A stretch of 17,673 nt of DNA, taken from positions 1 to 17,673 of the forward strand of contig JBBSVU010000021.1 of NCBI GenBank assembly GCA_038046645.1, written 5' to 3'. Within the stretch, counting starts at the first letter, position 1; every line of letters begins with the position of its first letter. The position numbers were made by a program, and so were the translations under genes. Below the pieces are notes generated by a model. It worked only from the letters and a program-made list of their open reading frames with translations, searched no databases and was not told the origin of the DNA. Positions 518 through 15,885 of the stretch are shown in pieces. The stretch is from an archaeon. Lineage in GTDB: Archaea > Iainarchaeota > Iainarchaeia > Iainarchaeales > 0-14-0-20-34-12.

Positions 518-1249
518 TTATTCTAGATATACCTTGAACAGAATAAGCAGTATTAGCCCAAATAAGAAACTTAAAAATACTGCAGTTGATTTTTTTAATG
601 ACACTTCCTTGTGCAACTCAGGAATTAAATCCGAAGCTGCAATGTAAATAAAGCCGCCGGCAGCAAATGGCAATAATATATTTGAAAATTCTATTGCAAA
701 GAAGAATCCGACTAAGCCTCCAAGAATGCAGGTCATCTGTGATAACAGGCTAAACAATAATGCCTTTGTTTTTGTAAAGCCGCCATATACCAATGTCGCA
801 AAATTCCCTAATTCTTGTGGTATCTCATGTGAAATAATTGCTATTGTGGTTATGATTCCAGTTGGAACCCCTGCAATAAATCCGGCAGCTATAACCAAAC
901 CATCAATAAAGTTATGAATTCCATCCCCAATTAATATCAAATAGGTAAATTCATGCGTTTCACATTTGCCATTATGGCAATGATGCCAGTGCAAAAACCT
1001 TTCAATAAAGAAAAATAGGCAAAATCCAATTAACAAATAAACAAAAACTTCAAATGCCGGCATTTCTTCAAGGGATTCAAGCAACAGATGGAAGAATGCC
1101 GCGCCAATTAAAGCGCCGGCAGAGAAAGCAACAAGGAATAATAATATTTTCTGGAATTTTTTGTCATTCATCCATAAGGTGAATATCCCAACAAGCGCTA
1201 GCAAGCTGTCAATTATTGTTGCAAGTAATATATACAGCAGGGTATCCAT
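518..1249 (-). CDS. ZIP family (ZupT-like) divalent metal/zinc transporter
   Basis: 243 aa, multi-pass hydrophobic. Has a His-rich loop HWHHCH, TM4 motif GDGIHNFIDG, TM5 motif HEIPQELG and the C-terminal AAGGFIYIAASDLIPEL typical of ZIP transporters. Confidence 0.95.
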   Translation of the reverse strand: MDTLLYILLATIIDSLLALVGIFTLWMNDKKFQKILLFLVAFSAGALIGAAFFHLLLESLEEMPAFEVFVYLLIGFCLFFFIERFLHWHHCHNGKCETHEFTYLILIGDGIHNFIDGLVIAAGFIAGVPTGIITTIAIISHEIPQELGNFATLVYGGFTKTKALLFSLLSQMTCILGGLVGFFFAIEFSNILLPFAAGGFIYIAASDLIPELHKEVSLKKSTAVFLSFLFGLILLILFKVYLE

Positions 1250-1276
1250 AAAAATCCAAAAAATTATTTATTATAA

Positions 1277-3691
1277 TTACATCTTCATTGTGGATGTCAT
1301 TAAATGGTAATATGGAGGGTGTGTTTTATACCTTTTTATTGCATTTTTAATTATCAGTTCCAAGAAATCCTTGTATTTGAATCCGACAGTTTCTGCACAA
1401 GCCGGGACACAATCACCAATATTAATTGAAGGATTCGGATTTAATTCGAGAACATAAGGATTGTTGTCCTTGTCAGTCCTTATCTCTACCCTGCCATAAT
1501 CATGGCAATCAAGTATATTGTAAGTATCTATGGCCATTTCAGTTATTAGGGCAGTCAATCTTTTAGGAATGTTTGCAGGCCTTTCAGTTCTGATTTTATT
1601 ATATACTGATTTTTTTAATCCCCATTTCGCATCATATGGATAAATATGCCAATAACCCTCAGGCATATCCTCAAACATTGACCTTGATAAAGGCAATACC
1701 TTCAAATCATCTTCATTTCCGACGATGGTAATGTCATACTCATCCCCTTCAATATATTCTTCAATCAGTGCAGGCCTTCCAATCTCGCAAATTACCTTTT
1801 CAAGCTGCCCGTATAATTCTTTTTTATCCTGGACAACAGAATCATTCGTAATCCCTATTGAATTATCAGTGTTTGCAGGCTTTACAATTAAAGGATATTC
1901 CAAATCCTGGTCGATTGAATCTTCCATGGTAAAAACATAATCCCATTTTGGTGTCGGTATTTTATTTAAGGAAAGCAATTCCTTTACCCTTATCTTGTCA
2001 ATGCACAAGGAAAGCGTGTGCGGATTAGAGCCAGTGTATGGAATCTGCAGCATGTCCAAAAGAGCGGCTGAATGCGGCTCAAGCAAGCTTGAATTATTTA
2101 TCCGTTCACATACATTGAACATTACATCCACTTTTGCAGTAACTATATCATCTACTATATCTGGGAATTTGTTCATATCAAAGAACGTTACTTTATACCC
2201 AGTTTTTTCCAAAGTTTTCTGGATATTTTTCCCAACACTTGTCAAATCTTTTTCAACAGGATTATCGCTGTCCCCTTCATAATCATTGCATAACACCCCG
2301 ATGTGCAATTTCAAAAGGTCTTCAGCCCTAAACAGCCTAATCTTCTCAATCTTTTGCTGCCCTAAAATATTATTTCTTAAAACATGCGCAGATGAAAATT
2401 TATCCTTCCTCCTGCTTTGCCCAATGCTTGAATAAGGGGCAAATTCAATTACAAGGTAATCAAATTTCATCAAAGCTTCCATCAAAATAGTTTCAGATTC
2501 TTCTTCTGTCTTTCCCTTTGTAACTACCCAGCCTAATGTTTCAAATCCTTCTGGCGGAACCAAGATAGCTTCACCAACATTTTGGAATATCTTTAGTTCA
2601 TAAACGCCTGGCATTTCAGTGATCTCTTTTATTCCTTGGATCCCTGAAACAATCCCAGAACTTTGGGGTATGATATATTTCCCGGCCATGTAACACCTTG
2701 GCTTTGTAGCTTTCTTTGCAGTAATCTTTTTCCCCAATGCAATTAGCACTGATTGCTCAACCAAATCAACGTTCCAAACATTCCTTACCCAATCCCAAAG
2801 ATAATCCCCGCCCATTCTTGCAGCGATTTCAATTACCACAGGCTTATTATCCACAAGCTTTACTTCAGTATGTGTAATGCCATTCCTTAGCCCTATCGCC
2901 CTTATTGCTTTGCATACCTCTTTCTCAACCCTTTCCCTTGTCTTAGTATCTAAGCGAGTAGGCATTACATCACCAGTTTCCATAAAATAAGGCGCTTTCA
3001 TTCTCATTTTGTCTGAAATGGCAATTACCCTTGGAATGCCTTGCTGCACAAGCGTTTCAATGGCATATTCTGACCCGCTTAAATATTCCTCAAGAATAAA
3101 TTGTGAATTATTGTAATTGAAAATAGGGTTAAATTTCGGGGTGGCATTCCTTACAACATATTCATAAGTATTGACTGCGTCTTCTTTTTCTTCAATCTTA
3201 ATTACGAATTCGCTGTCTGCACCCCAGCAAGGCTTTATCACTGCCGGAAATTTAATCTTATCCATCACCCTTTCCAAATCCTGCCTGCTTGAGATAAGGA
3301 AAAATTTAGGTGTGTTCATATTTTTCTTTTTGAAAGCAGCCCTCATCTCAAATTTATTCCTTGCTTTCAGCGCAGTATCTATGCTTGGGCCGACAAAATC
3401 AAATTTCTCGCAGATTTTTGCAAGAAGAGGCACATCATCCTCCCAAAAAGTTATTGCGCCGTCAATTGAATGCCTTTTCATGAACCCATCAAGCTTATCC
3501 AGGCATTCCTGGTGGTTGTATGTGTTTGCTTTTATGAAATAGTCAGCATATTTTTTCTGCCAGCTTAAGCTAGAATTTAATAATACTATCTTTAAGCCGA
3601 GCTTTTTTGCGGCCTTTAATGTAAATTCCTTTTTTTCTGAACCGGAACCTACAAATAAAATTGTGTACCCTTCCAATTTGTTATCAGTCAT
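1277..3691 (-). CDS. Tandem double ATP-grasp amide ligase: N-terminal carnosine-synthase/L-amino-acid-ligase-like module plus C-terminal D-Ala-D-Ala-ligase-like module
   Basis: 804 aa, one uninterrupted frame. Module 1 (aa ~1-415): NKFEMR, FPAVIKP, ILEEYLSGSE, HTEVKL, EIAARMGG and a LAL-type C-terminal subdomain. Module 2 (aa ~462-790): FNVCE, IPYTGS, DKIRVK, YPLIVKP..SIGI, LIEEYIEG, YDAKW, YGRVE, LELNPNP. Confidence 0.9.
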   Translation of the reverse strand: MTDNKLEGYTILFVGSGSEKKEFTLKAAKKLGLKIVLLNSSLSWQKKYADYFIKANTYNHQECLDKLDGFMKRHSIDGAITFWEDDVPLLAKICEKFDFVGPSIDTALKARNKFEMRAAFKKKNMNTPKFFLISSRQDLERVMDKIKFPAVIKPCWGADSEFVIKIEEKEDAVNTYEYVVRNATPKFNPIFNYNNSQFILEEYLSGSEYAIETLVQQGIPRVIAISDKMRMKAPYFMETGDVMPTRLDTKTRERVEKEVCKAIRAIGLRNGITHTEVKLVDNKPVVIEIAARMGGDYLWDWVRNVWNVDLVEQSVLIALGKKITAKKATKPRCYMAGKYIIPQSSGIVSGIQGIKEITEMPGVYELKIFQNVGEAILVPPEGFETLGWVVTKGKTEEESETILMEALMKFDYLVIEFAPYSSIGQSRRKDKFSSAHVLRNNILGQQKIEKIRLFRAEDLLKLHIGVLCNDYEGDSDNPVEKDLTSVGKNIQKTLEKTGYKVTFFDMNKFPDIVDDIVTAKVDVMFNVCERINNSSLLEPHSAALLDMLQIPYTGSNPHTLSLCIDKIRVKELLSLNKIPTPKWDYVFTMEDSIDQDLEYPLIVKPANTDNSIGITNDSVVQDKKELYGQLEKVICEIGRPALIEEYIEGDEYDITIVGNEDDLKVLPLSRSMFEDMPEGYWHIYPYDAKWGLKKSVYNKIRTERPANIPKRLTALITEMAIDTYNILDCHDYGRVEIRTDKDNNPYVLELNPNPSINIGDCVPACAETVGFKYKDFLELIIKNAIKRYKTHPPYYHLMTSTMKM

Positions 3692-4035
3692 AATTTTTCT
3701 TTTTTCAAAATGAGTGCCGGAGTTTTGAAATTATTTTGTTTTGCTTAAATTATTCCAGATTATTTATCCAAAATTATTTTTTTAGTTTATTTTTATTTTA
3801 TATTTTTTTAATTATACTATTATTTAATGCAATAAACTATTTAAATGTTGATATAAAAAATGCAAAATCCAGGAAAATTTCGGCAAAAAAATAATTTTTT
3901 CCTTGAAAATTTAATTTTTGCACCAGAAAAAAATCTTTTATTCCTTTTTTGCCAATTGTTTTTGATAATATCCAAAATTTTACTGCATTTTGCCAAAAGC
4001 CAATATTTATAAAACAAATATCGCTTATCCTTACT

Positions 4036-4490: not shown

Positions 4491-6449
4491 CTATCCAGCT
4501 CCGCCACCGCCTCCTCCTCCACCCCCTCCGCCACCGCCTCCAAATCCACCAGACCCTGATGTTGCGGTTGCGGATGAGAATGCAGAGCTGAATGATTGGG
4601 TAATGCTTCCAATATTCATACTTGACATGCTTGCGTATGTGCCAATAAATATTGAGGAGTGATATGGTCCAGAATAATCCTTGAAAACAATATCCATTGA
4701 TTTCTGCACTTCTTCAGCTATCCCTAAAGGTATGGAATACACCAAATATTTTTCCCATAATGGCAGATATTCAGGAGAAACATTCTTCAGGTTGCTGAAA
4801 TCCTTGAGGAATTTCTTCAGGTTCATCCATTTAGCATAATGTATTGCTCCCTCCTTTGTCCTATTAGGCAAAGCATTTGGGAAAATGAATAAAGGCAGGA
4901 TTGCCAATGATACTGAAAGCAAGATCATTGCGAAGCCTATTATGGCTGCGGTTATTACCAAAATTGCTGAACCTATCAAGTAGGGTAAATAGCCAGACAT
5001 CTTTGAGAAGAATCCCCTTTTTTCTGCATCCAAACTGGCAGTTTTCATCCAATCTTTCAAGAATGCTTGGGATTCAATCCTATGGTGCATTAAATATTCC
5101 TCTAACTCACTCAATAACAGTTCATTCGGTGTTTCATCCTTTTTCTTTTGCTTGAATATTTTCCCTTCATAGCCATATTCTGCAGCTTGGCATATAAATG
5201 CAAGCAATTTTTTCTCACTTTCCGGTAGTTTGCTTTTATCTTTGCTTTTAATCAGTATTTTGAAATCATCTTTTGAAAGAAATCCTTTTTTTGGGATTCT
5301 CTCCAGCTTGAGGTTTCCTTTCAGGCACATATTAAGTATTTCAGCAACAATCGTATCGCTTTTTGGGTTTTTATTTTCCTGATTTATCAATGCGCTTACA
5401 GTAGCAGGGCTGTAATCATAAGGAATTTCCCTTTCATATATCGCATCATATTCAATTTTAGGCTCCCTTCCGAACAAATGCCAACAGATAGCAAATAAGG
5501 CAATCTGAAGTAGGCTTAGTATTGTCACAATTAAAGGATTAATTTCCATTACCGCAACAATAATGACCATTAAAAGGAAAAAGCCCAAGCATATGGAAAC
5601 CCATATCTTTACTGCTTTTTGCAAAAGCTTCGGTTTTTTAGTGCTAACAAATAGAATGCTTAGTATAATCAGAAGCCAAATCGAAGGAAGCAGCAGGAAT
5701 ACTGCGAATAAACCCAATAAACCTTGCAAACTGTTAACAAATTCATCAGCCTTTGCAAAATTCTTCTCTTCTTCGATTATTTTCTGCAACCCATTTTCAT
5801 TCTTCACAATTGCATTTTCTTTTGATGAAAGCATTGTTGCGGGGAAAGCAGTTCTTATTTCAACCCATTGTTCTTTTGGAATGTTAAATGCCTGAAATAA
5901 AATCTTTTTGCCCTCAATCATCCCAATTTTTCCATTTAATTTGGGATGGCCCCACACATAGATATCCTTCGGATTTTCTATATCTGAAGGCAATTCAATA
6001 AAGCCAGTGAGTTCAGATAATTTCGCAGCCCAGCTGTCTCCCCATACTTTCCAGTTTAATTCAGCTACATCATTGTAAGCAGTAATTGCATTTTTTAGTT
6101 TGTAAGTTATTTCAAATGTTCTTTCCTCATCCTCTGCCGAATAATACCAGGTTATTTTTGTTTTGTCAAACAAATCTTCTATTTTTGCCTGAAGTGGATT
6201 TCCATTCTCTTCAACCTTTAAATCACTTAAATCCCAATACCCCTTTGGTATCTCCCTATATGCATAGCTATAACTTCCATGGAAATCAAAGTTTATCTTT
6301 TCTGTCACATAAACTGTTGCATCTTCCTGAATTTGCATTTCCACTTCAGCTTTGCTTAAAGTATAATATTTTTTTGCAGAAACATTTGGCAGAAAAACAA
6401 GCAGCAGGATAAAAACCAGCGCCAACAAGCCCAAAAATCTTTTTTGCAT
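4491..6449 (-). CDS. DUF2207 family membrane protein
   Basis: 652 aa from ATG 6449. Signal-peptide-like N-terminus, extracellular beta domain (VTEKINFDF, ELNWKVWG, WVEIR), TM segments, LKKFLKDFS..WEKYLVYSIPLG and the Gly-rich tail GGFGGGGGGGGGGGGGGAG. Confidence 0.9.
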   Translation of the reverse strand: MQKRFLGLLALVFILLLVFLPNVSAKKYYTLSKAEVEMQIQEDATVYVTEKINFDFHGSYSYAYREIPKGYWDLSDLKVEENGNPLQAKIEDLFDKTKITWYYSAEDEERTFEITYKLKNAITAYNDVAELNWKVWGDSWAAKLSELTGFIELPSDIENPKDIYVWGHPKLNGKIGMIEGKKILFQAFNIPKEQWVEIRTAFPATMLSSKENAIVKNENGLQKIIEEEKNFAKADEFVNSLQGLLGLFAVFLLLPSIWLLIILSILFVSTKKPKLLQKAVKIWVSICLGFFLLMVIIVAVMEINPLIVTILSLLQIALFAICWHLFGREPKIEYDAIYEREIPYDYSPATVSALINQENKNPKSDTIVAEILNMCLKGNLKLERIPKKGFLSKDDFKILIKSKDKSKLPESEKKLLAFICQAAEYGYEGKIFKQKKKDETPNELLLSELEEYLMHHRIESQAFLKDWMKTASLDAEKRGFFSKMSGYLPYLIGSAILVITAAIIGFAMILLSVSLAILPLFIFPNALPNRTKEGAIHYAKWMNLKKFLKDFSNLKNVSPEYLPLWEKYLVYSIPLGIAEEVQKSMDIVFKDYSGPYHSSIFIGTYASMSSMNIGSITQSFSSAFSSATATSGSGGFGGGGGGGGGGGGGGAG

Positions 6450-6514
6450 ACTTTTTTTATGTTTAAACCTATTTATATTATTTGTTTTTGGCAATTCTTC
6501 ATTTTTGGAAAAAA

Positions 6515-6559
6515 CAAAAATAAAAACAATTTTTGGCAAAGGCAAAAATAAAAACAATT
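6515..6559. repeat. 17-bp exact direct repeat CAAAAATAAAAACAATT in a divergent intergenic region
   Basis: Copies at 6515-6531 and 6543-6559, between the divergent DUF2207 and antiporter starts. Low complexity. Confidence 0.5.
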
Positions 6560-6591: not shown

Positions 6592-7536
6592 ATGGTCCTG
6601 TTAGATATTGTAATTTTTATCTTGGCAATGGCAGTCCTTTTATTCAGCTCAAAGAAGGTAATTGATGCCTGCATAAAAATATCTGAATATTCAGGCATTT
6701 CCCATTTAGCCATTGGCTTTATTGTTATTGCAATAGCTGTTTCCCTGCCTGATTTTATGGTTTCCTTTATTGCTACCCTAAATAATAAGCCTGCTTTAGC
6801 AATCGGTGATGCTTTAGGCTCAAGCATTGCCAACATTTGCCTAGTTTTAGGGATAGTGACAATGATAAGGCATGTTTCGGTTGAAAGAAAACACACTTTG
6901 GAAAGTGCAGAATTGCTTTTGTTAATCAGTTTAGTGCCTGCGATTATCCTTTCAAGAGGGATTGTTGGGGCATTTGAAGGAACAATCCTTTTGATAATCT
7001 TTGTACTTTATGCCTTTTTCACAATTAAGGAAAGATTTGATTTGCATATTAAAGATGGAGTAACAAAAAAAGAATGGCATCATTCAGCAGGGATTCTTTT
7101 TGCCGGCTTATTGCTTGTAATCGCAAGCTCACATTTTGTTGTTTTAACTGCTTCAAATATTGCCCGTTTTTTAGGAATTCCAGAAGCAGTAATAGGCTTA
7201 ACCTTAGTTTCCTTCGGCACTACCTTGCCTGAATTAGTTATAGATTTCACAGCTATACGCTTCGGCCATTATGCTTTAGCTATTGGGGATATTTTAGGAA
7301 GCACAGTTGTAAACCTTACTTTAATTTTAGGAATGACTCTTACACTTTCGCCCACCATGGTTGACCTAAGTGTTTATACTATTCCTTTAGCCTTTGTAAT
7401 AATTGCAAATTCCTATTTGTTTTACAGTCTGGTAAAGCATGAAGGCATCGGTTACAGGCAAGGAGTGATATTCATTTTGATGTATGTTTCCTTTATCTTT
7501 GCAATGATACTCACAAAAGGGCTTTATGCTGCTTAA
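6592..7536 (+). CDS. Calcium/sodium antiporter (CaCA superfamily, YrbG-like)
   Basis: 314 aa, about 10 TMs. Alpha-repeats AVSLPD...AIGDALGSSIANI and GTTLPE...AIGDILGSTVVN. Confidence 0.93.
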   Translation: MVLLDIVIFILAMAVLLFSSKKVIDACIKISEYSGISHLAIGFIVIAIAVSLPDFMVSFIATLNNKPALAIGDALGSSIANICLVLGIVTMIRHVSVERKHTLESAELLLLISLVPAIILSRGIVGAFEGTILLIIFVLYAFFTIKERFDLHIKDGVTKKEWHHSAGILFAGLLLVIASSHFVVLTASNIARFLGIPEAVIGLTLVSFGTTLPELVIDFTAIRFGHYALAIGDILGSTVVNLTLILGMTLTLSPTMVDLSVYTIPLAFVIIANSYLFYSLVKHEGIGYRQGVIFILMYVSFIFAMILTKGLYAA

Positions 7537-7875: not shown

Positions 7876-9105
7876 TTACTCCCCATAGTCTATTCTCTTT
7901 CTGGCCTGTTTAATACTCTCAATAGTAATCTGCTTAATCAATAGGGCAAATTTCGCATCATCCCTTTTTTTCGATAATTTAGTCAATTTCATATACTGTT
8001 CAGAAAAGCCTATCGGTATTTTAACAAGCGGAAATCCATTGCTAATTAGGATTTTACTGAAAATTGCCCGTGCGGTTCTGCTATTCCCATCTATAAAAGG
8101 ATGGATACGCTGGAACTCATTATGCAAAAAAGCTGCATTATCAACCCATTGTATGGCTGATTGTTTTTTCACCTGTTGTATTTGCCTGACTTTTTCAATG
8201 AAATCATCCAAAATGGCAGGCAGCTGGTGCCAATTAGGTGTTTTAAAATCTGGATTTCCCTTAATCTTAACATTTTGCTTTCTGATTTGCCCTGCCCCAT
8301 AAGGCATAGAATTCATTGCAGTTCTGTGGAATTCCAAAATCATATCTAAATCAAGCGCCTTATTGGAATAAATGAAAAAATCCAATGCTTTCTTATAATC
8401 TAAAACCTCCTGTGCTTCCTTAAAAGGTTTATTTGTTGGGGCAATATTCTGCTTAATGAGCCTTTCAGTTTCTGGCAATGTCAGAGTGTTTCCTTCCAAA
8501 TGCAAGCTTGAATAAATAAAACCAATTTCATCAAAGGTGATTTTCTTTTTAACCAGCTTTTTATACTCAGAAAACTCCTTCTCCAGCCTCTTTTCTACAC
8601 TTTCCTTATCTAAACAATCAGCTAAGTTTTGGCAGGCAACTAATGGTTTTAGCAAGAATTGTTCGACAAGGCACTCTAAAAATCTAGAGTGAACAATTTT
8701 GCAGGCAAATGGTTTTTTGGATTCCACAATGGCAAATCCATGTTTTGTCAATAAATCAGAAATCTTCCGAACTGTTTTGTTGTCAAAAGGCATTCTTGAG
8801 ATATGCCCTTTTTCCAGCCCAAGCCTAACAAACGCGGCAGTTTTCTCCGAAACCATTCGGTTATAATCAATGTTATTACTGAAGCAAAAATTTACCAACC
8901 AAAATAGCCTATGCGCTTTTTCACTATCCCCTATGAAAAATGCCCCATTCTCTTCCCTTATTAAATTCTCGTGTTTTAATTTTTTAACCAGCTTGTAAAT
9001 AGATGCATATGCTACTGGTTTTTTGCCAATTTTCTTGACAATCTCATTGCAGGATAATCCTGGGAATAATCCTATTGCCAAAAGAACATCTAATCTAGAA
9101 ACCAT
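7876..9105 (-). CDS. Fic/DOC family protein with N-terminal winged-helix region
   Basis: 409 aa. Fic motif HPFIDGNSRTAR, inhibitory-helix motif SSLHLEGN, and an N-terminal wHTH-like segment (GLSCNEIVKKIGK..YASIYKLVKKLKHENLI). Confidence 0.93.
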   Translation of the reverse strand: MVSRLDVLLAIGLFPGLSCNEIVKKIGKKPVAYASIYKLVKKLKHENLIREENGAFFIGDSEKAHRLFWLVNFCFSNNIDYNRMVSEKTAAFVRLGLEKGHISRMPFDNKTVRKISDLLTKHGFAIVESKKPFACKIVHSRFLECLVEQFLLKPLVACQNLADCLDKESVEKRLEKEFSEYKKLVKKKITFDEIGFIYSSLHLEGNTLTLPETERLIKQNIAPTNKPFKEAQEVLDYKKALDFFIYSNKALDLDMILEFHRTAMNSMPYGAGQIRKQNVKIKGNPDFKTPNWHQLPAILDDFIEKVRQIQQVKKQSAIQWVDNAAFLHNEFQRIHPFIDGNSRTARAIFSKILISNGFPLVKIPIGFSEQYMKLTKLSKKRDDAKFALLIKQITIESIKQARKRIDYGE

Positions 9106-9415: not shown

Positions 9416-9437
9416 CAGGTTGACATATAGTAACTGT

Positions 9438-10034
9438 ATGAAACTGACATCAAGGCAAACATATAAGATTGTAACTTATGTACTTGCAACCCCCAAGTTT
9501 ACGCAAACAAAGCTAGCTGAAAAAACAGGGGTTTCATGGGGCAGGATGAATGAGATAGTGCAATGGCTCGTAAGCAAGGGTTTTGTCGAAAAAAGAATAG
9601 GCAATTATGAACTTATTGACCCTGCCAATCTGGTTTCATTATTCCCAATTTATAGGGATATGACTTCGCTACTTCTGGAAAAGCTGCCATTAAGGCTTAC
9701 AAAAAAGCAGGTATTGGAAATGCTGCCAAAAAAGGCAGTGCTTTGCCTGGACTCTGCACTTGAATTTTATTCAGGCTACTGGAATTCAGGAAGCGTTTAT
9801 GCCTATGCTGATAATAAGCAGCTTAAGGAAATTGAAAATAAATTCAAGCCTTGGGTCGGCGGCAATACAAACCTTTTTGTATTCAAGCCAGATATGCCCC
9901 TGGAAACAAAAAAAGTAAAGGGTTTTATTGCAACAAGCAGGCTAAGGACACTTATAGATATGCTCTGTGACAAAAAGAGCCATTCTGCTAAGGATTTATA
10001 CAAGCAGTTGTGGGGTCTGAAGTTTGAAGAGTAA
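9438..10034 (+). CDS. Winged-HTH transcriptional regulator / AbiEi-like type IV antitoxin
   Basis: 198 aa from ATG 9438. HTH TQTKLAEKTGVSWGRMNEIVQWLVSKGFVEK. C-terminal VYAY...GFIATSRLRTLIDML resembles AbiEi C-terminal domains. Overlaps the downstream nucleotidyltransferase gene by 11 bp. Confidence 0.75.
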   Translation: MKLTSRQTYKIVTYVLATPKFTQTKLAEKTGVSWGRMNEIVQWLVSKGFVEKRIGNYELIDPANLVSLFPIYRDMTSLLLEKLPLRLTKKQVLEMLPKKAVLCLDSALEFYSGYWNSGSVYAYADNKQLKEIENKFKPWVGGNTNLFVFKPDMPLETKKVKGFIATSRLRTLIDMLCDKKSHSAKDLYKQLWGLKFEE

Positions 10035-10689
10035 ATATGCTGAAAATAAGCTGACTAAGGCATCATACAATGAACTTTTAAAACTTGCCTGCATCTTCAA
10101 TAGGCATGGCTTAAGCCCAATTATAATAGGCGGCTGGGCCGTTTATTTCTATACAAAGGGGGCAAAATCAATTGACATTGATATGATTCTGCCGTCAAAA
10201 TATGCGGTGAAAATCTTTGAAAAACACTGTAGGCAGTATGGCTTCATTAAAAGCAAATCAAAAATAAGGGCTTTATTTAGGAAGGAAATCAGTACTGGAA
10301 GTGGCAGAAAAGAGGAGATTCAGCTTGACATATTTACGCTGGCAGATAAAAATATTCTTGCATCAGACAATTCGATTGAAATACCCTGGAAGCTTGCTGA
10401 GATGCATAGTTTGGAATGGCCTATTGGAAATAATGCTGTTATCCGGCTTCCAGCAAAAGAAGTCCTTCTACTTTATAAAGTTGCGGCATTGATTGACAGG
10501 GAATACAAACTGAGAACTTGGGTGATGCCGATGGTAACAAAAGAAAGGTTAAGGTCAAAAATTGAAAAAGATAAGGCAGATATTTTGGGATTAATTGGCA
10601 CAGGCATTGACAAAATAGAACTAAATAAGCTTCTTAAAAAAACTGGTTTTTTGAAATATTTTGAGCTAAAGGTAGGTGAATTGAAATGA
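10024..10689 (+). CDS. Pol-beta superfamily nucleotidyltransferase, AbiEii-like type IV toxin
   Basis: 221 aa, TTG start with GGGGT RBS-like sequence upstream. Motifs IIIGGWAV, SIDID, QLDIF, LYKVAALIDR and KDKADI match the AbiEii pattern (GG, DxD, K..A..R, (R/K)D..D). Confidence 0.8.
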   Translation: MKSKYAENKLTKASYNELLKLACIFNRHGLSPIIIGGWAVYFYTKGAKSIDIDMILPSKYAVKIFEKHCRQYGFIKSKSKIRALFRKEISTGSGRKEEIQLDIFTLADKNILASDNSIEIPWKLAEMHSLEWPIGNNAVIRLPAKEVLLLYKVAALIDREYKLRTWVMPMVTKERLRSKIEKDKADILGLIGTGIDKIELNKLLKKTGFLKYFELKVGELK

Positions 10690-12256: not shown

Positions 12257-13540
12257 ATGGATCTTGTTAGTTTTTTGTTTTTGTCTGCAGCAATAATTTT
12301 TGTTGGAGTGCTTGGTGAATTGATATTTGCAAGGACAAACATACCTGATGTTTTGCTTCTGATGCTTTTAGGAATTGTGATAGGTCCTTTTTTGCTCCTT
12401 GTGGATCCTTCATTGCTTTGGAAAATTGCCCCATTCTTTTCAGCAATTGCTTTAACTGTAATTCTTTTTGAAGGCGGTTTGCATTTGAATATTTATGAAG
12501 TGATAAAGAATATGCCAGCATCCTTTTCCTTATCCCTGCTTTCTTTCATAATTATTGGCTTGTTTGTTTCTGTAGCATATTATTCATTAGGTTTTTTTGG
12601 AATTATTCAAAATGTTACATTAATTAATTCATTAATACTTGGTGCAACGCTAGCTGGTACAAGTTCAATATTGCTTATTCCATTAATGCTAAAATCAAAA
12701 GTAAACAGGAAAATTTTGGATATATTAGGTTTGGAATCTACATATAATGATGTTTTTGTTATTGTTGCAGTTGTTGCTTTGATTAAATTTGCAATTGGTT
12801 CTTCTGCTGGAACATACGGGATAGATAGTGTTCTGAAAGAGGTTGCTGCTAATTTTGCTGTTGGTTTGGTTATAGGGGCATTGTTAGGGCTTTTGTGGCT
12901 ATATGTGTTGAAATTTTTCAAGAAAAAAAGCGATGAGTTAATACATCATTACATGTTGACATTCGCATGCCTGCTTATTGTTTATGTGGTTTCTGAATAT
13001 TTAGGAGGGAGCTCTGCCCTTGCAGTATTAATGTTTGGCTTGGTTTTAGGCAATGCCCACCAAATAGGCCTAATACTCAGGCTTTCTGACAATTTTACTG
13101 TAGATACTGAAGTAAGGCGTTTTAATTCACAGGTTTCATTTTTTGTCAAGACGTTTTTCTTTGCATTTATTGGCATGTTATTTGTCCTAGATTTCCAATT
13201 AGTATTAATTGGAATAGTTATAACTGCAATCATATTTGCCGCAAGATTTGTTTCAGTAAAAATATTTTCAGTGAAATATTCTTTGTCCAAAAATGATTTC
13301 TTTGCCCTTTCGACATTAATTCCTAAAGGTTTAGCAGCAGCAGTTGTTTCAATAATGCCGATGCAGTATGGAATTGCTGGTACAGAAAATTTTATAGCTT
13401 ATACCTTTTCAGTAATTTTGGCAACTACCATTATTGCAACAATTAGCTTCTATATTGTCCAAAAAAAAGCAATTGAGAACAAAGATCAGCAACAAGAAGC
13501 AGTAACTGAGATTAATGTGCCGGAAATCGATCAGATTTAA
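12257..13540 (+). CDS. Cation:proton antiporter (CPA1, NhaP-like)
   Basis: 427 aa, about 12-13 TMs. IPDVLLLMLLGIVIGP, ILFEGGL, LESTYND, FFFAFIG and PKGLAAAV. Confidence 0.93.
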   Translation: MDLVSFLFLSAAIIFVGVLGELIFARTNIPDVLLLMLLGIVIGPFLLLVDPSLLWKIAPFFSAIALTVILFEGGLHLNIYEVIKNMPASFSLSLLSFIIIGLFVSVAYYSLGFFGIIQNVTLINSLILGATLAGTSSILLIPLMLKSKVNRKILDILGLESTYNDVFVIVAVVALIKFAIGSSAGTYGIDSVLKEVAANFAVGLVIGALLGLLWLYVLKFFKKKSDELIHHYMLTFACLLIVYVVSEYLGGSSALAVLMFGLVLGNAHQIGLILRLSDNFTVDTEVRRFNSQVSFFVKTFFFAFIGMLFVLDFQLVLIGIVITAIIFAARFVSVKIFSVKYSLSKNDFFALSTLIPKGLAAAVVSIMPMQYGIAGTENFIAYTFSVILATTIIATISFYIVQKKAIENKDQQQEAVTEINVPEIDQI

Positions 13541-13541
13541 A

Positions 13542-14888
13542 TTATTTCAACACTAAGGCTATTTCTTTCAAGTCTTTTATTTCAATGTTTGCTGATTTTC
13601 TAGCATGGGAGTCTGCATTAACTGCTATTCCCAATCCAGCATTTTTCAGCATACATGCATCTCCCTTTGAATCACCAACTGCAACAATCTTGCCCAGTTT
13701 TATGTGTTTATCCTTGGCTAAATGCTCTAATACATTCGTTTTGCATATCCTGTGTTTTCTGCAGAAACCAATAAACTCCTTAGGCATAATTACCTTTCCA
13801 GTTATTCTGCTTTTTTTCACTTCAAGCATAGGGCAAAAATATTTTAATTTTAGTTTATCTGCGAAATATTTACAAACCGGTTTATAACTCATTGAAATAA
13901 TTATTATTTTATATGTTTTCTTTAACCTTCTTATTGTTTCGACAGCATTTTTCGCGAATTTTATTTTTTTGGCAGCATTTAGGATATCCTTCTCATTCCT
14001 TCCTTTCAGCAATTTTGCAATTTTTTCAGAAATTTGTTCATCAGTTATTCTCCCTTTTTTAAACTTGTCTCTTAATTTTTTTATTTCTTTCTTAAAACCA
14101 AACTTTTCAGCAATTAAATCAATAGTTCTGCCTTTCAGCAAAGTATTATCCATATCAAATGCAATAATCTGGTATTTTCTGGCTTTTTCATATTTTTTTA
14201 GTATGGTTTTTGCAACATGCTCTGCCATAGGCTTTAGTTCATGCAGTGCTCTTTGAATATGTTCTATTTCACCTATATTGACCTGTTTTATCCTATATTT
14301 TTTATGTATTACATCTATCAAAATTTCAATATCAACACCCCATTTTGGACTTATTTTTAGTTTCTTCAATAGTTCTTTTCTTGCGCAAAATTGCCCGCTT
14401 AATGGCTGTTCCATATTAATGCGTGGAAATAGTTCTTTCAATAAGGGTTTAGCAGTTAGTTCAGTTACCCTTCCACTGCTTCTGCCAAATGATGCTTTTA
14501 CAAAATCCGCTTCATTATTCAAAACAGGCTCAATTATATTTACTATTTTTTGCTTTGTGATATTTTTTAAGTCTGCATCAAGAAACAAAATTACTTCTTC
14601 TCTTGCATTTCTAATGCCTGTTTTTATTGCTCTCCCTTTCCCAAAGTTTTTATGATGTTTTATTACGGTTGCGCCATTCTTTGTAGCTATTTTAACCGTG
14701 TTATCTGTTGAACCATCGTCAACAACAATAATTTCGCTTATTTCAAATACTTTCTTGGCCTCTTTTATCACATGAGCAATTGTTTCTTCTTCATTGTATG
14801 CTGGAATAACTAAGGATACTTTCTTTTTGAAGAGCCAAGAAAATGTTTCAGATAAAAATGCTCTAATCGCTTTGTTATTTTTTTTCAT
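13542..14888 (-). CDS. Bifunctional GT-A glycosyltransferase (glucosyl-3-phosphoglycerate synthase-like) / HAD-IB phosphatase (SerB-like) fusion
   Basis: 448 aa from ATG 14888; alternative TTG start at 14936. GT part: VIPAYNEE, VDDGSTD, GKG, FLDADL, GRVTELTAKPLL, QPLSGQ, WGVDIEILID. HAD part: FDMDNTL, IISMSY, K, VGDSKGD. Confidence 0.85.
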   Translation of the reverse strand: MKKNNKAIRAFLSETFSWLFKKKVSLVIPAYNEEETIAHVIKEAKKVFEISEIIVVDDGSTDNTVKIATKNGATVIKHHKNFGKGRAIKTGIRNAREEVILFLDADLKNITKQKIVNIIEPVLNNEADFVKASFGRSSGRVTELTAKPLLKELFPRINMEQPLSGQFCARKELLKKLKISPKWGVDIEILIDVIHKKYRIKQVNIGEIEHIQRALHELKPMAEHVAKTILKKYEKARKYQIIAFDMDNTLLKGRTIDLIAEKFGFKKEIKKLRDKFKKGRITDEQISEKIAKLLKGRNEKDILNAAKKIKFAKNAVETIRRLKKTYKIIIISMSYKPVCKYFADKLKLKYFCPMLEVKKSRITGKVIMPKEFIGFCRKHRICKTNVLEHLAKDKHIKLGKIVAVGDSKGDACMLKNAGLGIAVNADSHARKSANIEIKDLKEIALVLK

Positions 14889-14922
14889 GAGCACAAATAA
14901 TAAGCCAATACTCTTTATATTT

Positions 14923-15885
14923 TTAGCTTCCGCCAATGATCTGCAAGAAAATAATTGTAATAATATAAATCAAATAGATTGCTAAGAACAACCCGCCACC
15001 TTTTTTATCTAATTGTTTGTCGACGGCAGAAGCATAAAATAATATTATGTTTGCAATGATCGCAAAAAGCAATGCTGCTATGAATACTGGCAAAGTTACT
15101 GTAATGTTATTTATCACTGATGCAGTACCTAAAACCAGTGTCATGTTTGTCATGTTACTTCCTATGGCATCCCCCAAAGCTAATCCATAATGCTTTTTCC
15201 TTATTGCCTGCAAATCTATGGATAATTCAGGCAATGATGTTCCTAGAGCTATAATAGTTGCACCTATAACACTTTTTGCTAAATGTAATGTTTCCGCTAT
15301 CTTTACTGCTGAACTTACAACAAAACCTGAGCTAATAAGAACAAGTATCATTGAACCAGTAAAAAATAAAAATGCTGGCATTGCTTCTTTTTTTGAAACA
15401 GTTTTTGTGCTGTTTAATTCAATGCTCTTTTTTCTGGAAATATAAAAAGCATATGCCCCGAACATGAGCAATAATACAATGCCTTCAAATAATCCTAATG
15501 CCCTGTTAGTTATTATGCTGTTAAATATGATATAAACCGAGATGATTGTTGTTAGCACCAATATTATGGCAATATCCTTTAACTCAGTTTTCCTTATTTT
15601 TAAGCCATAAAAGAATGCACCTATTCCTAAAATTAACAGTATGTTTGCAATATTTGAGCCAAATACATTTCCTGCAGATATTGCCCCTTCCCCTAATGAA
15701 GAAGATATTACTGATACAGATAGTTCAGGCAAGGAGGTTGATACTGAAATAAGGAGAAACCCTACCGCAATCTGGCTTATTCCAAAGAATCTTGAAAGTT
15801 TTTCTGCATTTTTTATTACAACACTTGCAGATTTTGCTAAGATAACTAATGAAATTATCAAAGTAGCTATTTCGACAAATACCAT
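14923..15885 (-). CDS. Calcium/sodium antiporter (CaCA superfamily, YrbG-like), second paralogue
   Basis: 320 aa. Alpha-repeats STSLPE...GNVFGSNIANI and GTSLPE...ALGDAIGSNMTN. Confidence 0.93.
   Translation of the reverse strand: MVFVEIATLIISLVILAKSASVVIKNAEKLSRFFGISQIAVGFLLISVSTSLPELSVSVISSSLGEGAISAGNVFGSNIANILLILGIGAFFYGLKIRKTELKDIAIILVLTTIISVYIIFNSIITNRALGLFEGIVLLLMFGAYAFYISRKKSIELNSTKTVSKKEAMPAFLFFTGSMILVLISSGFVVSSAVKIAETLHLAKSVIGATIIALGTSLPELSIDLQAIRKKHYGLALGDAIGSNMTNMTLVLGTASVINNITVTLPVFIAALLFAIIANIILFYASAVDKQLDKKGGGLFLAIYLIYIITIIFLQIIGGS

Follow-up and report, generated by a model that had tools for sequence, protein, structure and literature searches.

What might a very small archaeon from groundwater make with two different ATP-grasp ligases joined in one protein? 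The question is raised by gene P0001, which lies at positions 1277 to 3691 on the minus strand (stop codon included) of a 17,673-nucleotide (nt) stretch of contig JBBSVU010000021.1 (assembly GCA_038046645.1, Iainarchaeota), hereafter called the window, and which encodes a two-module ATP-grasp ligase of 804 amino acids (aa). The first module is of the L-amino-acid ligase (LAL) type, the second is derived from the D-Ala-D-Ala ligases (Ddl) but does not appear to be one of them, and the same pair recurs in archaea and bacteria. The answer that we favor is a self-contained enzyme that would form two amide bonds on the way to a short peptide.

A single frame encodes two complete ATP-grasp modules

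The frame from 1277 to 3691 is open throughout and translates into 804 aa. Module 1, of the LAL type, takes up residues 1-416 (2444 to 3691); an inter-module linker, consisting of a conserved motif followed by two short helices, covers residues 417-460 (2312 to 2443); module 2, a Ddl-derived ATP-grasp ligase that includes its own N-terminal domain, spans residues 461-790 (1322 to 2311); and a conserved C-terminal tail with the consensus (R/K)PPYYHLQ(T/S) makes up residues 791-804 (1280 to 1321), all on the minus strand. Both modules were delimited by Pfam, a PDB search, and Foldseek. In module 1, Pfam placed ATPgrasp_N at residues 26-97 (31.5 bits, cutoff 27), ATP-grasp_4 at 146-296 (E = 1.9e-30; ATP-grasp_4/ATP-grasp_3 core at 110-296), and LAL_C2 at 339-407 (E = 8.7e-12), each above its gathering score, and in module 2 it placed Dala_Dala_lig_C at 591-781 (E = 4.4e-31). 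The domain scores of both modules are far outside the chance range. An earlier sequence-only reading of the locus had proposed two complete ATP-grasp domains in one frame, and translation and Pfam bear this out. The motifs it quoted are all found in the translation, namely ILFVGSGSEKKEF (residues 11-23), DGAITFWEDD (77-86), SDKMRMKAPYFMETGDVMPTRL, and IEIAARMGGDYLWDWVRNVWNVDL in module 1 and FNVCE (525-529), DNSIG (609-613), RVE (734-736), and ELNPNP (749-754) in module 2, as are the ATP-binding, hinge, and metal-binding residues it named (K153, E201-E202-Y203, E276, and E288 in module 1; K604, E644-E645-Y646, and E749 in module 2).

An AlphaFold2 model, built from an alignment of 121 family members, predicts that both modules are well folded, with a mean predicted local distance difference test score (pLDDT) of 89.1. 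The pLDDT falls below 50 at residues 423-437 and 799-804; within the C-terminal tail it averages no more than 59 (residues 791-800) and drops to 37 over the final four residues. The predicted template modeling score (pTM) of 0.60 leaves the mutual placement of modules 1 and 2 undefined. The family alignment, which also underlies all per-residue counts below (n = 121), holds the query and the best 120 of 818 relatives detected at E ≤ 1e-3 among 7786 candidates from a 90%-clustered protein collection.

Module 1 resembles the L-amino-acid ligases

The best solved relative of module 1 is the B. licheniformis LAL BL00235 (PDB entry 3vot; E = 1.4e-39 in a PDB sequence search), and BacD was also matched (E = 3e-21). 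Foldseek against the PDB likewise ranked 3vot first (E = 3.9e-32, TMt = 0.89), followed by BacD and RizA, so the kinship to bacterial LALs that had been proposed from motifs holds in both sequence and predicted fold. The ATP-binding Lys, the Mg-binding Glu pair, and the catalytic Arg of the E-x-[AG]-A-R-x-G-G motif are all kept: R111, K113, K153, and R292 occur in 121/121 sequences, H274 in 119, and E276 in 120, while position 288 is Glu in 113 and Asp in all others. The hinge E201-E202-Y203 varies conservatively (Glu in 74 and Gln in 47 sequences at 201, Glu in 92 at 202, and Tyr in 83 and Phe in 37 at 203). Position 290, which is Ala in 82, Asn in 36, and Gly in 3 sequences, superficially resembles the loss of a metal ligand. 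Ala or Gly is normal for LALs at this position, because the module 1 string HTE(276)...IE(288)IAAR(292)MGG aligns with IESAARFAG in BacD and IEVGARIGG in BL00235. On these residues, module 1 is an LAL-type ATP-grasp ligase with intact catalytic residues and is apparently active. Assignment to a named LAL was rejected, since the NCBIfam models for BacD (NF053745, 94.6-103 bits against a cutoff of 850) and DdaF (NF041595, 46.6 bits against 840) scored below their cutoffs.

A parallel to the catalytic domain of animal carnosine synthase had also been drawn, and it stands in part. Through a module-1-like representative (P0291) we reached P0384, a protein of 1076 aa named carnosine synthase by JGI, whose residues 642-1070 align with residues 4-414 of module 1 (30% identity, E = 4e-59); the two have TFWEDDV, FPAVIKP, and ARMGG.Y..DWV.NVW.VD.VE in common. 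The JGI name is an automatic label, and the kinship observed is one to P0384. Other relatives of module 1 lie at the C terminus of proteins of 1100-1600 aa (Pfam), and a search of the ESM Atlas with module 1 returned only generic clusters named "ATP-grasp domain-containing protein."

Module 2 has a Ddl fold and an altered substrate site

Module 2 matched the Ddl structure 3r23 in the PDB sequence search (E = 6e-26), and Foldseek aligned the second half of the model with DdlA and DdlB chains (TMt = 0.77-0.85). Residue equivalents were taken from an alignment to the 306-residue Y. pestis Ddl, whose numbering we assume to equal that of E. coli DdlB. Ddl residues K144, S150, E180, K215, R255, E270, and N272 correspond to K604, S611, E644/E645, K689, R734, E749, and N751, and all are kept, invariant or nearly so. 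Fully invariant in module 2 are K566, K570, K604, S611, E644, E645, E736, R738, E749, and N751. Other positions are changed: Ddl Y216 corresponds to W690 (112/121), S281 to D760 (112/121), and D257 to E736 (121/121). Position 480, which by our own reading of the sequence is the equivalent of Glu15, since no alignment reaches Ddl residue 15, is Glu in 77/121 members. We take Glu15, Tyr216, and Ser281, together with Ser150 (kept as S611), to be the DdlB residues that presumably hold the two D-alanines. Every NCBIfam model scored below its curated cutoff for P0001, PRK02186 among them (129-169 bits, cutoff 625), and by this measure P0001 belongs with neither the Ddl enzymes nor a named LAL; the proposal that module 2 is Ddl-like but not Ddl is thus upheld by the Ddl model scores and by the altered substrate positions.

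The fusion is a widespread family

The best 120 relatives are collinear with the query, are 793-947 aa long, cover 97-100% of it, and are 47-92% identical to it; PF13535 and PF07478 are both present in all 120. HMMER, run exhaustively against 1.84 billion 50%-cluster representatives, returned 1097 proteins at E ≤ 1e-30, and at least 11 of the best 150 representatives gave full-length matches of 781-814 aa in one stretch. The collinear alignment of both modules and a linker motif in which S421 and G424 are invariant place P0001 in a family of LAL + Ddl-like fusions. Among the sources named for these 120 proteins are Woesearchaeota, Nanoarchaeota, Micrarchaeota, Elusimicrobia, and several lineages of the Candidate Phyla Radiation (CPR). 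The architecture, which the sequence-only reading had noted in an archaeon and proposed to survey across DPANN and CPR genomes, is widespread in DPANN archaea and CPR bacteria and also in Elusimicrobia, and it is not special to this archaeon. No description of an LAL + Ddl-like fusion was found in the literature searched; as far as our searches reach, this is a widespread, strongly conserved, and undescribed family.

The closest genome record contains a protein 92% identical to P0001. In a FastTree phylogeny of the 121 sequences, the 7 archaeal-labeled and 15 bacterial-labeled rows separate with one change (support 71), the remaining 99 rows being unlabeled. The query and the protein 92% identical to it share a long branch within a 22-row clade (support 95) that contains Woesearchaeota and Nanoarchaeota rows. 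The host is archaeal by the content of the window, which encodes a tRNA-splicing endonuclease and an archaeal-type TrpRS; TrmB-type regulators are also present. Its genome comprises 1.17 Mb on 25 contigs and is 89% complete, which bounds each genome-wide negative result reported below. Few genomes of the window's phylum have the gene, with matches at E ≤ 1e-20 in 7 of 201 sampled. Two of the seven, both of the window's genus, carry the full-length fusion, and the other five have a stand-alone relative of one module, which is module-2-like in four (as tandem pairs in two) and module-1-like in one (G146).

The modules differ in conservation and have acidic residues at presumed pocket positions

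Compared with the other 119 family members, module 2 has a mean identity of 65% (range, 55 to 71), which is as high to CPR as to archaeal sequences, whereas module 1 has a mean identity of 42% (range, 35 to 54) and separates archaea from bacteria. The linker motif reads F417..S421-S422-x-G424-(K/Q/R)-T-x-R428-K..F-S-x-A435, or F..SSxG[KQR]TxRKxRFSxA in short form; besides its two invariant residues, R428 and A435 are found in at least 118/121 sequences. In the tail, P792 is kept in 118/121 members, P793 in 110, H796 in 119, and L797 in 116. Linker motif and PPYYHL tail are strongly conserved and yet predicted by AlphaFold2 to be disordered. Either might serve as a mobile lid, a hand-over element, or a docking site.

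Two substrate-contact positions of characterized LALs are acidic in module 1. Pro85 of BL00235 aligns with D85 (Asp in 106/121), which lies inside the conserved W83-E84-D85-D86, and Trp332 of BacD aligns with D296 (Asp in 110/121); the entry for the W332A mutant (3wo1) marks the latter position directly. In a review of these enzymes (PMC6920838), P85 of BL00235 and W332 of BacD are described as key pocket residues, and carnosine synthase is stated to accept His, Lys, Orn, and Arg as C-terminal substrates. The alignments place three conserved Asp residues, D85, D296, and the D760 of module 2, where relatives contact their substrates, which hints that one or more of the building blocks may be basic or amine rich.

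A two-step peptide synthetase is the favored function

We consider it reasonably probable that P0001 is a self-contained bifunctional amide-bond synthetase in which two ligations lead to a short peptide or pseudopeptide. In the proposed scheme, module 1, as an enzyme of the BL00235/BacD/carnosine-synthase type, would use ATP to activate the carboxylate of a first substrate to an acyl phosphate, which the amine of a second substrate would then attack, as in the general ATP-grasp mechanism. Module 2, with its rebuilt substrate site, would perform another ATP-dependent ligation, for which the module 1 product is the most likely substrate, after the model of dipeptide extension by glutathione synthetase, and the end product would be a tripeptide-like or peptide-amine compound. 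The substrates, the product, and the order and coupling of the two steps are what we infer, the coupling from the fusion itself. A bolder version, which we offer only tentatively and think doubtful in its full form, is an assembly line independent of ribosomes and of nonribosomal peptide synthetases that would make a new, probably cationic, tripeptide-like metabolite needed by the ultra-small, symbiotic DPANN archaea and CPR bacteria and by Elusimicrobia, with module 2 reading the invariant part of that metabolite and the linker and tail handing over the intermediate.

Several points count against a two-step synthetase. The pTM of 0.60 gives no confident placement of the predicted modules. The pocket arguments are drawn from pairwise alignments and from the roles presumed for Ddl Glu15, Tyr216, and Ser281. 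The genes on either side, for a ZIP transporter and a PCC-domain protein, yield no pathway clue in this genome, and no Rfam element was found near the ligase in the 18 sources scanned (the window and 17 loci). Finally, the strong conservation of module 2 would also fit a conserved macromolecular substrate.

This last point leads to an alternative in which the enzyme modifies or extends a macromolecule, for example by RimK-like or tubulin-ligase-like peptide tailing of a conserved protein or by making a cyanophycin-like polymer. The high identity of module 2 between the two domains of life (55-71%, against 35-54% for module 1) would suit a universally conserved target, and the conserved, predicted-disordered linker motif and PPYYHL tail could be docking elements. 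The gene neighborhoods add to this. We compared 17 fused loci (the window, L002, L013, L014, L016 to L026, L028, and L030), leaving out L001, L003, and L005, which belong to the window's genus, L015, which nearly duplicates L014, and the fragmentary L027. None of the metagenome loci compared falls in the archaeal clade, and the archaeal contexts are those of the window's genus. A gene of 300 aa with an Acetyltransf_6/FemAB-like match lies downstream on the same strand in 7/17 loci, 4-15 nt after the ligase in six of them and 463 nt away, beyond a SET gene, in L028. SET-domain genes, of the protein lysine methyltransferase type, occur in 4 of these 7 loci (4/17 overall), and all 7 are nearest one CPR subclade with a Roizmanbacteria-labeled row. 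On the other side, both modules have their closest kin, by sequence as well as fold, among ligases of small molecules (3vot, BacD, RizA, and Ddl), and the RimK and LysX models scored far lower, at 39-67 bits, below their cutoffs. No candidate target gene is conserved beside the ligase, and the window's genome has no SET or Fem-like gene: PF13480 gave no match there, and none of 12 accessory proteins from other loci had a tblastn match. We regard a macromolecular substrate as unlikely.

A second alternative, to which we give about the same low credence, holds that the modules are independent ligases that yield two separate dipeptide-like products and are fused for co-expression only. The flexible linker and the pTM of 0.60 leave the modules structurally independent, and stand-alone relatives of each exist, at 335-416 aa for module-2-like proteins in the window's order and about 400-450 aa for module-1-like proteins among the 50%-cluster representatives. 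Against it, fusion, domain order, and linker motif are fixed in the best 120 relatives, from two domains of life, and the nearest relatives of module 2 are almost all within fused proteins or their fragments. ATP-grasp pairs, moreover, recur as operons and as fusions. Stand-alone relatives of module 2 are often found in tandem pairs, and Pfam reveals other fusions, comprising LAL + FemAB-like GNAT (P0264, 778 aa), LAL + LAL (about 820-860 aa), and Ddl-like + Ddl-like (644-697 aa) proteins (P0299, P0376, P0359, P0306, and P0309). This recurrent pairing is our main argument that modules 1 and 2 serve one product.

The surroundings of the stand-alone genes are recorded here in their own right. 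A KamA-family gene lies near module-2-like ligases in 12 loci (L006/L012, L007/L011, L034, L035, L039, L040, L042, L044, L049, L052, L060, and L062); in the four scanned it best fits the lysine 2,3-aminomutase AblA, in one case above the cutoff. A small GNAT gene follows in 8 loci (2 scanned). G125 and G134, which belong to the window's order, also carry this uncharacterized cassette of Ddl-like and lysine 2,3-aminomutase-like genes. In another 20 loci (L064 to L091), the stand-alone Ddl-like gene is preceded by a gene of 340 aa that matches Peptidase_Mx weakly (in the 2/20 scanned, about 32 bits, cutoff 27).

It is very improbable that module 2 is a genuine D-Ala-D-Ala (or D-Ala-D-X) ligase for the cell wall, even though its top family matches are Ddl models and Ddl structures. 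The Ddl model PRK01372 gave 199.2 bits with the whole protein and 157.9 with the module alone (cutoff 243), and the Ddl model TIGR01205 gave 153.4 and 127.7 bits (cutoff 245.65). In addition to the changes at Y216 and S281, position 480, the Glu15 equivalent by our reading, is not conserved. No Mur-ligase gene is among the genes of the window, in line with the earlier remark that mur genes are missing there. Genome-wide, the only Mur_ligase_M match is FolC (340 bits against 162.65), the only Ala_racemase_N match is YggS (173.5 against 106.25), and no Asp/Glu racemase (Asp_Glu_race) was found. Because this genome shows no Mur pathway and no recognized racemase, D-Ala-D-Ala synthesis is very unlikely. 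The same genome bears on the suggestion that the product might contain a D- or beta-amino acid: with no KamA-family aminomutase found, no Asp/Glu racemase, and YggS as the sole Ala_racemase_N match, that suggestion goes unsupported.

An assembly or gene-calling artefact, raised from the start as a way in which the two-module claim could fail, is next to impossible, given an uninterrupted reading frame, the same length and domain order in 120/120 listed relatives from many sources, and contigs of four runs from three studies that cover the junction unchanged. These were Logan contigs compared with window positions 1000 to 4000, from X1, a possible source sample, and X5, X6, and X8, which carry no such flag. 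The junction at 2312 to 2443 is crossed by a single long contig in each of the first three runs (X1, X5, and X6) and by a 151-nt contig (2322 to 2472) in X8, in all cases with no gaps or differences there. The two-module fusion is a real protein. Among 14 listed runs there was no RNA run with the gene. An apparent contig joint from 1354 to 3690, present in two runs, was set aside as a chance match: the contigs concerned (297-325 nt) match AT-rich 21-mers at 1334 to 1354 and 3690 to 3711, below the 30-letter guide, with 125 other letters between them, and are otherwise unlike the window.

The ligase stands alone in its genome

In this genome the ligase stands alone, and the partner genes seen elsewhere were not found; the only other ATP-grasp match is a CarB-like open reading frame (ORF) of 1072 aa. 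A ZIP-family metal transporter (518 to 1249, minus strand; Pfam Zip, E = 3.2e-38) is the same-strand downstream neighbor and starts 27 nt past the ligase stop codon, after a T-rich spacer. The ZupT model gave it 49.7 bits, below the cutoff of 252. Among the fused loci examined, a ZIP neighbor is present only beside the window's own gene, and it was seen in no genus but the window's. The other neighbor is a divergent PCC-domain gene. The upstream spacer of 257 nt holds only short low-complexity ORFs (20-119 aa) and no supported leader peptide, and scans for promoter-like and terminator-like signals stayed at shuffle level. In the bacterial locus L018 (6559 to 14944), the fused ligase has on one side a gene of 478 aa that matches MurL weakly (E = 3.6e-8) and on the other a trio made up of an ATP-grasp_3 gene, an unknown of 620 aa, and a pyridoxal phosphate-dependent decarboxylase; this set looks like a larger biosynthetic cassette.

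The rest of the window offers observations apart from the ligase. Counting the ZIP transporter, four cation transporters are encoded within 17.7 kb, the others at 6592 to 7536, 12257 to 13540, and 14923 to 15885 (two Na/Ca exchangers and one Na/H exchanger in all). At 13542 to 14936 (minus strand), a protein of 464 aa fuses a family 2 glycosyltransferase (GT2) to an HAD-IB phosphatase; its GT2 part resembles glucosyl-3-phosphoglycerate synthase (NF010496, 179 bits, cutoff 262), its phosphatase part is SerB-like (107 bits, below 144), and the whole may be a one-protein synthase/phosphatase for a compatible solute of the glycosyl-glycerate type. A 409-aa protein at 7876 to 9105 (minus strand) is winged-helix-like in its N-terminal part and carries a Fic/DOC domain in its C-terminal part (Pfam E = 6.4e-17). 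Next comes, at 9420 to 10689 (plus strand), a TrmB-like helix-turn-helix gene with an 11-nt overlap with a gene for 221 aa that fits no known family, and a DUF2207 membrane protein of 688 aa with a C-terminal run of about 20 glycines is encoded at 4491 to 6557 (minus strand).

What the enzyme could mean for its hosts

This ligase of 800 residues has been kept by DPANN archaea and CPR bacteria even though their genomes are minimal and encode few biosynthetic pathways. An enzyme retained so strictly, with module 2 at about 65% identity over two domains of life, should make something important. One possibility is a new small peptide metabolite that serves as an osmolyte, as a buffer for metals or redox state, or as a unit of the cell surface. 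With P0001 being soluble and its partner genes not found in this genome, it is a simple target for expression and substrate screening, and the LAL + Ddl-like pairing would enlarge, by a natural two-step catalyst, the so far small choice of ATP-grasp enzymes for peptide synthesis.

Comparison with known ligases

Module 1 has in common with the LALs BL00235 (3vot), BacD/YwfE, and RizA the three-part build of ATPgrasp_N, ATP-grasp_4, and LAL_C2, the H-x-E ... E-x-[AG]-A-R-x-G-G motif, and the 3vot fold (TMt 0.89). It differs from them in being only about 20-25% identical (Foldseek), in being fused to a second ligase, and in having Asp at the pocket positions of both P85 (BL00235) and W332 (BacD). 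Module 1 also matches the C-terminal 430 residues of the labeled carnosine synthase P0384 end to end; in P0384, however, 640 residues precede the aligned part and a Ddl-like module is lacking, whereas module 1 starts at residue 1 of its protein.

Like DdlA/B and VanA, module 2 has the Ddl fold and the ATP, Mg, and catalytic residues. It departs from them in its N-terminal loop, FNVCERINNSSLLEPH, which stands in place of an HG..GEDG-type loop, in the replacements Y216 to W, S281 to D, and D257 to E, in its scores below the curated cutoffs, and in having no cell-wall context. The tandem cassette of Ddl-like ligases, lysine 2,3-aminomutase, and GNAT contains the nearest stand-alone relatives of module 2 (30-40% identity), which have in common with it an A-K-W motif instead of K-Y. 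Those relatives are without D760, E736, and N-x-C-E-R, and the window's genome is without the KamA-family gene.

Two successive ATP-dependent ligations have a parallel in the bifunctional glutathione synthetase GshF. For rhizocticin, PMC13579937 has RhiC ligating the product of RhiM, and for mycosporine-like amino acids, PMC10666671 describes MysD as a Ddl homologue that acts after the ATP-grasp enzyme MysC. None of the pathway genes of these three systems is present here. The likeness lies in the principle, which P0001 would follow as well, that a small molecule is built by two ATP-dependent ligations in succession; the difference lies in how the catalysts are joined, since RhiM/RhiC and MysC/MysD are separate proteins and GshF is a non-ATP-grasp domain fused to an ATP-grasp domain, whereas P0001 unites two ATP-grasp modules in one chain.

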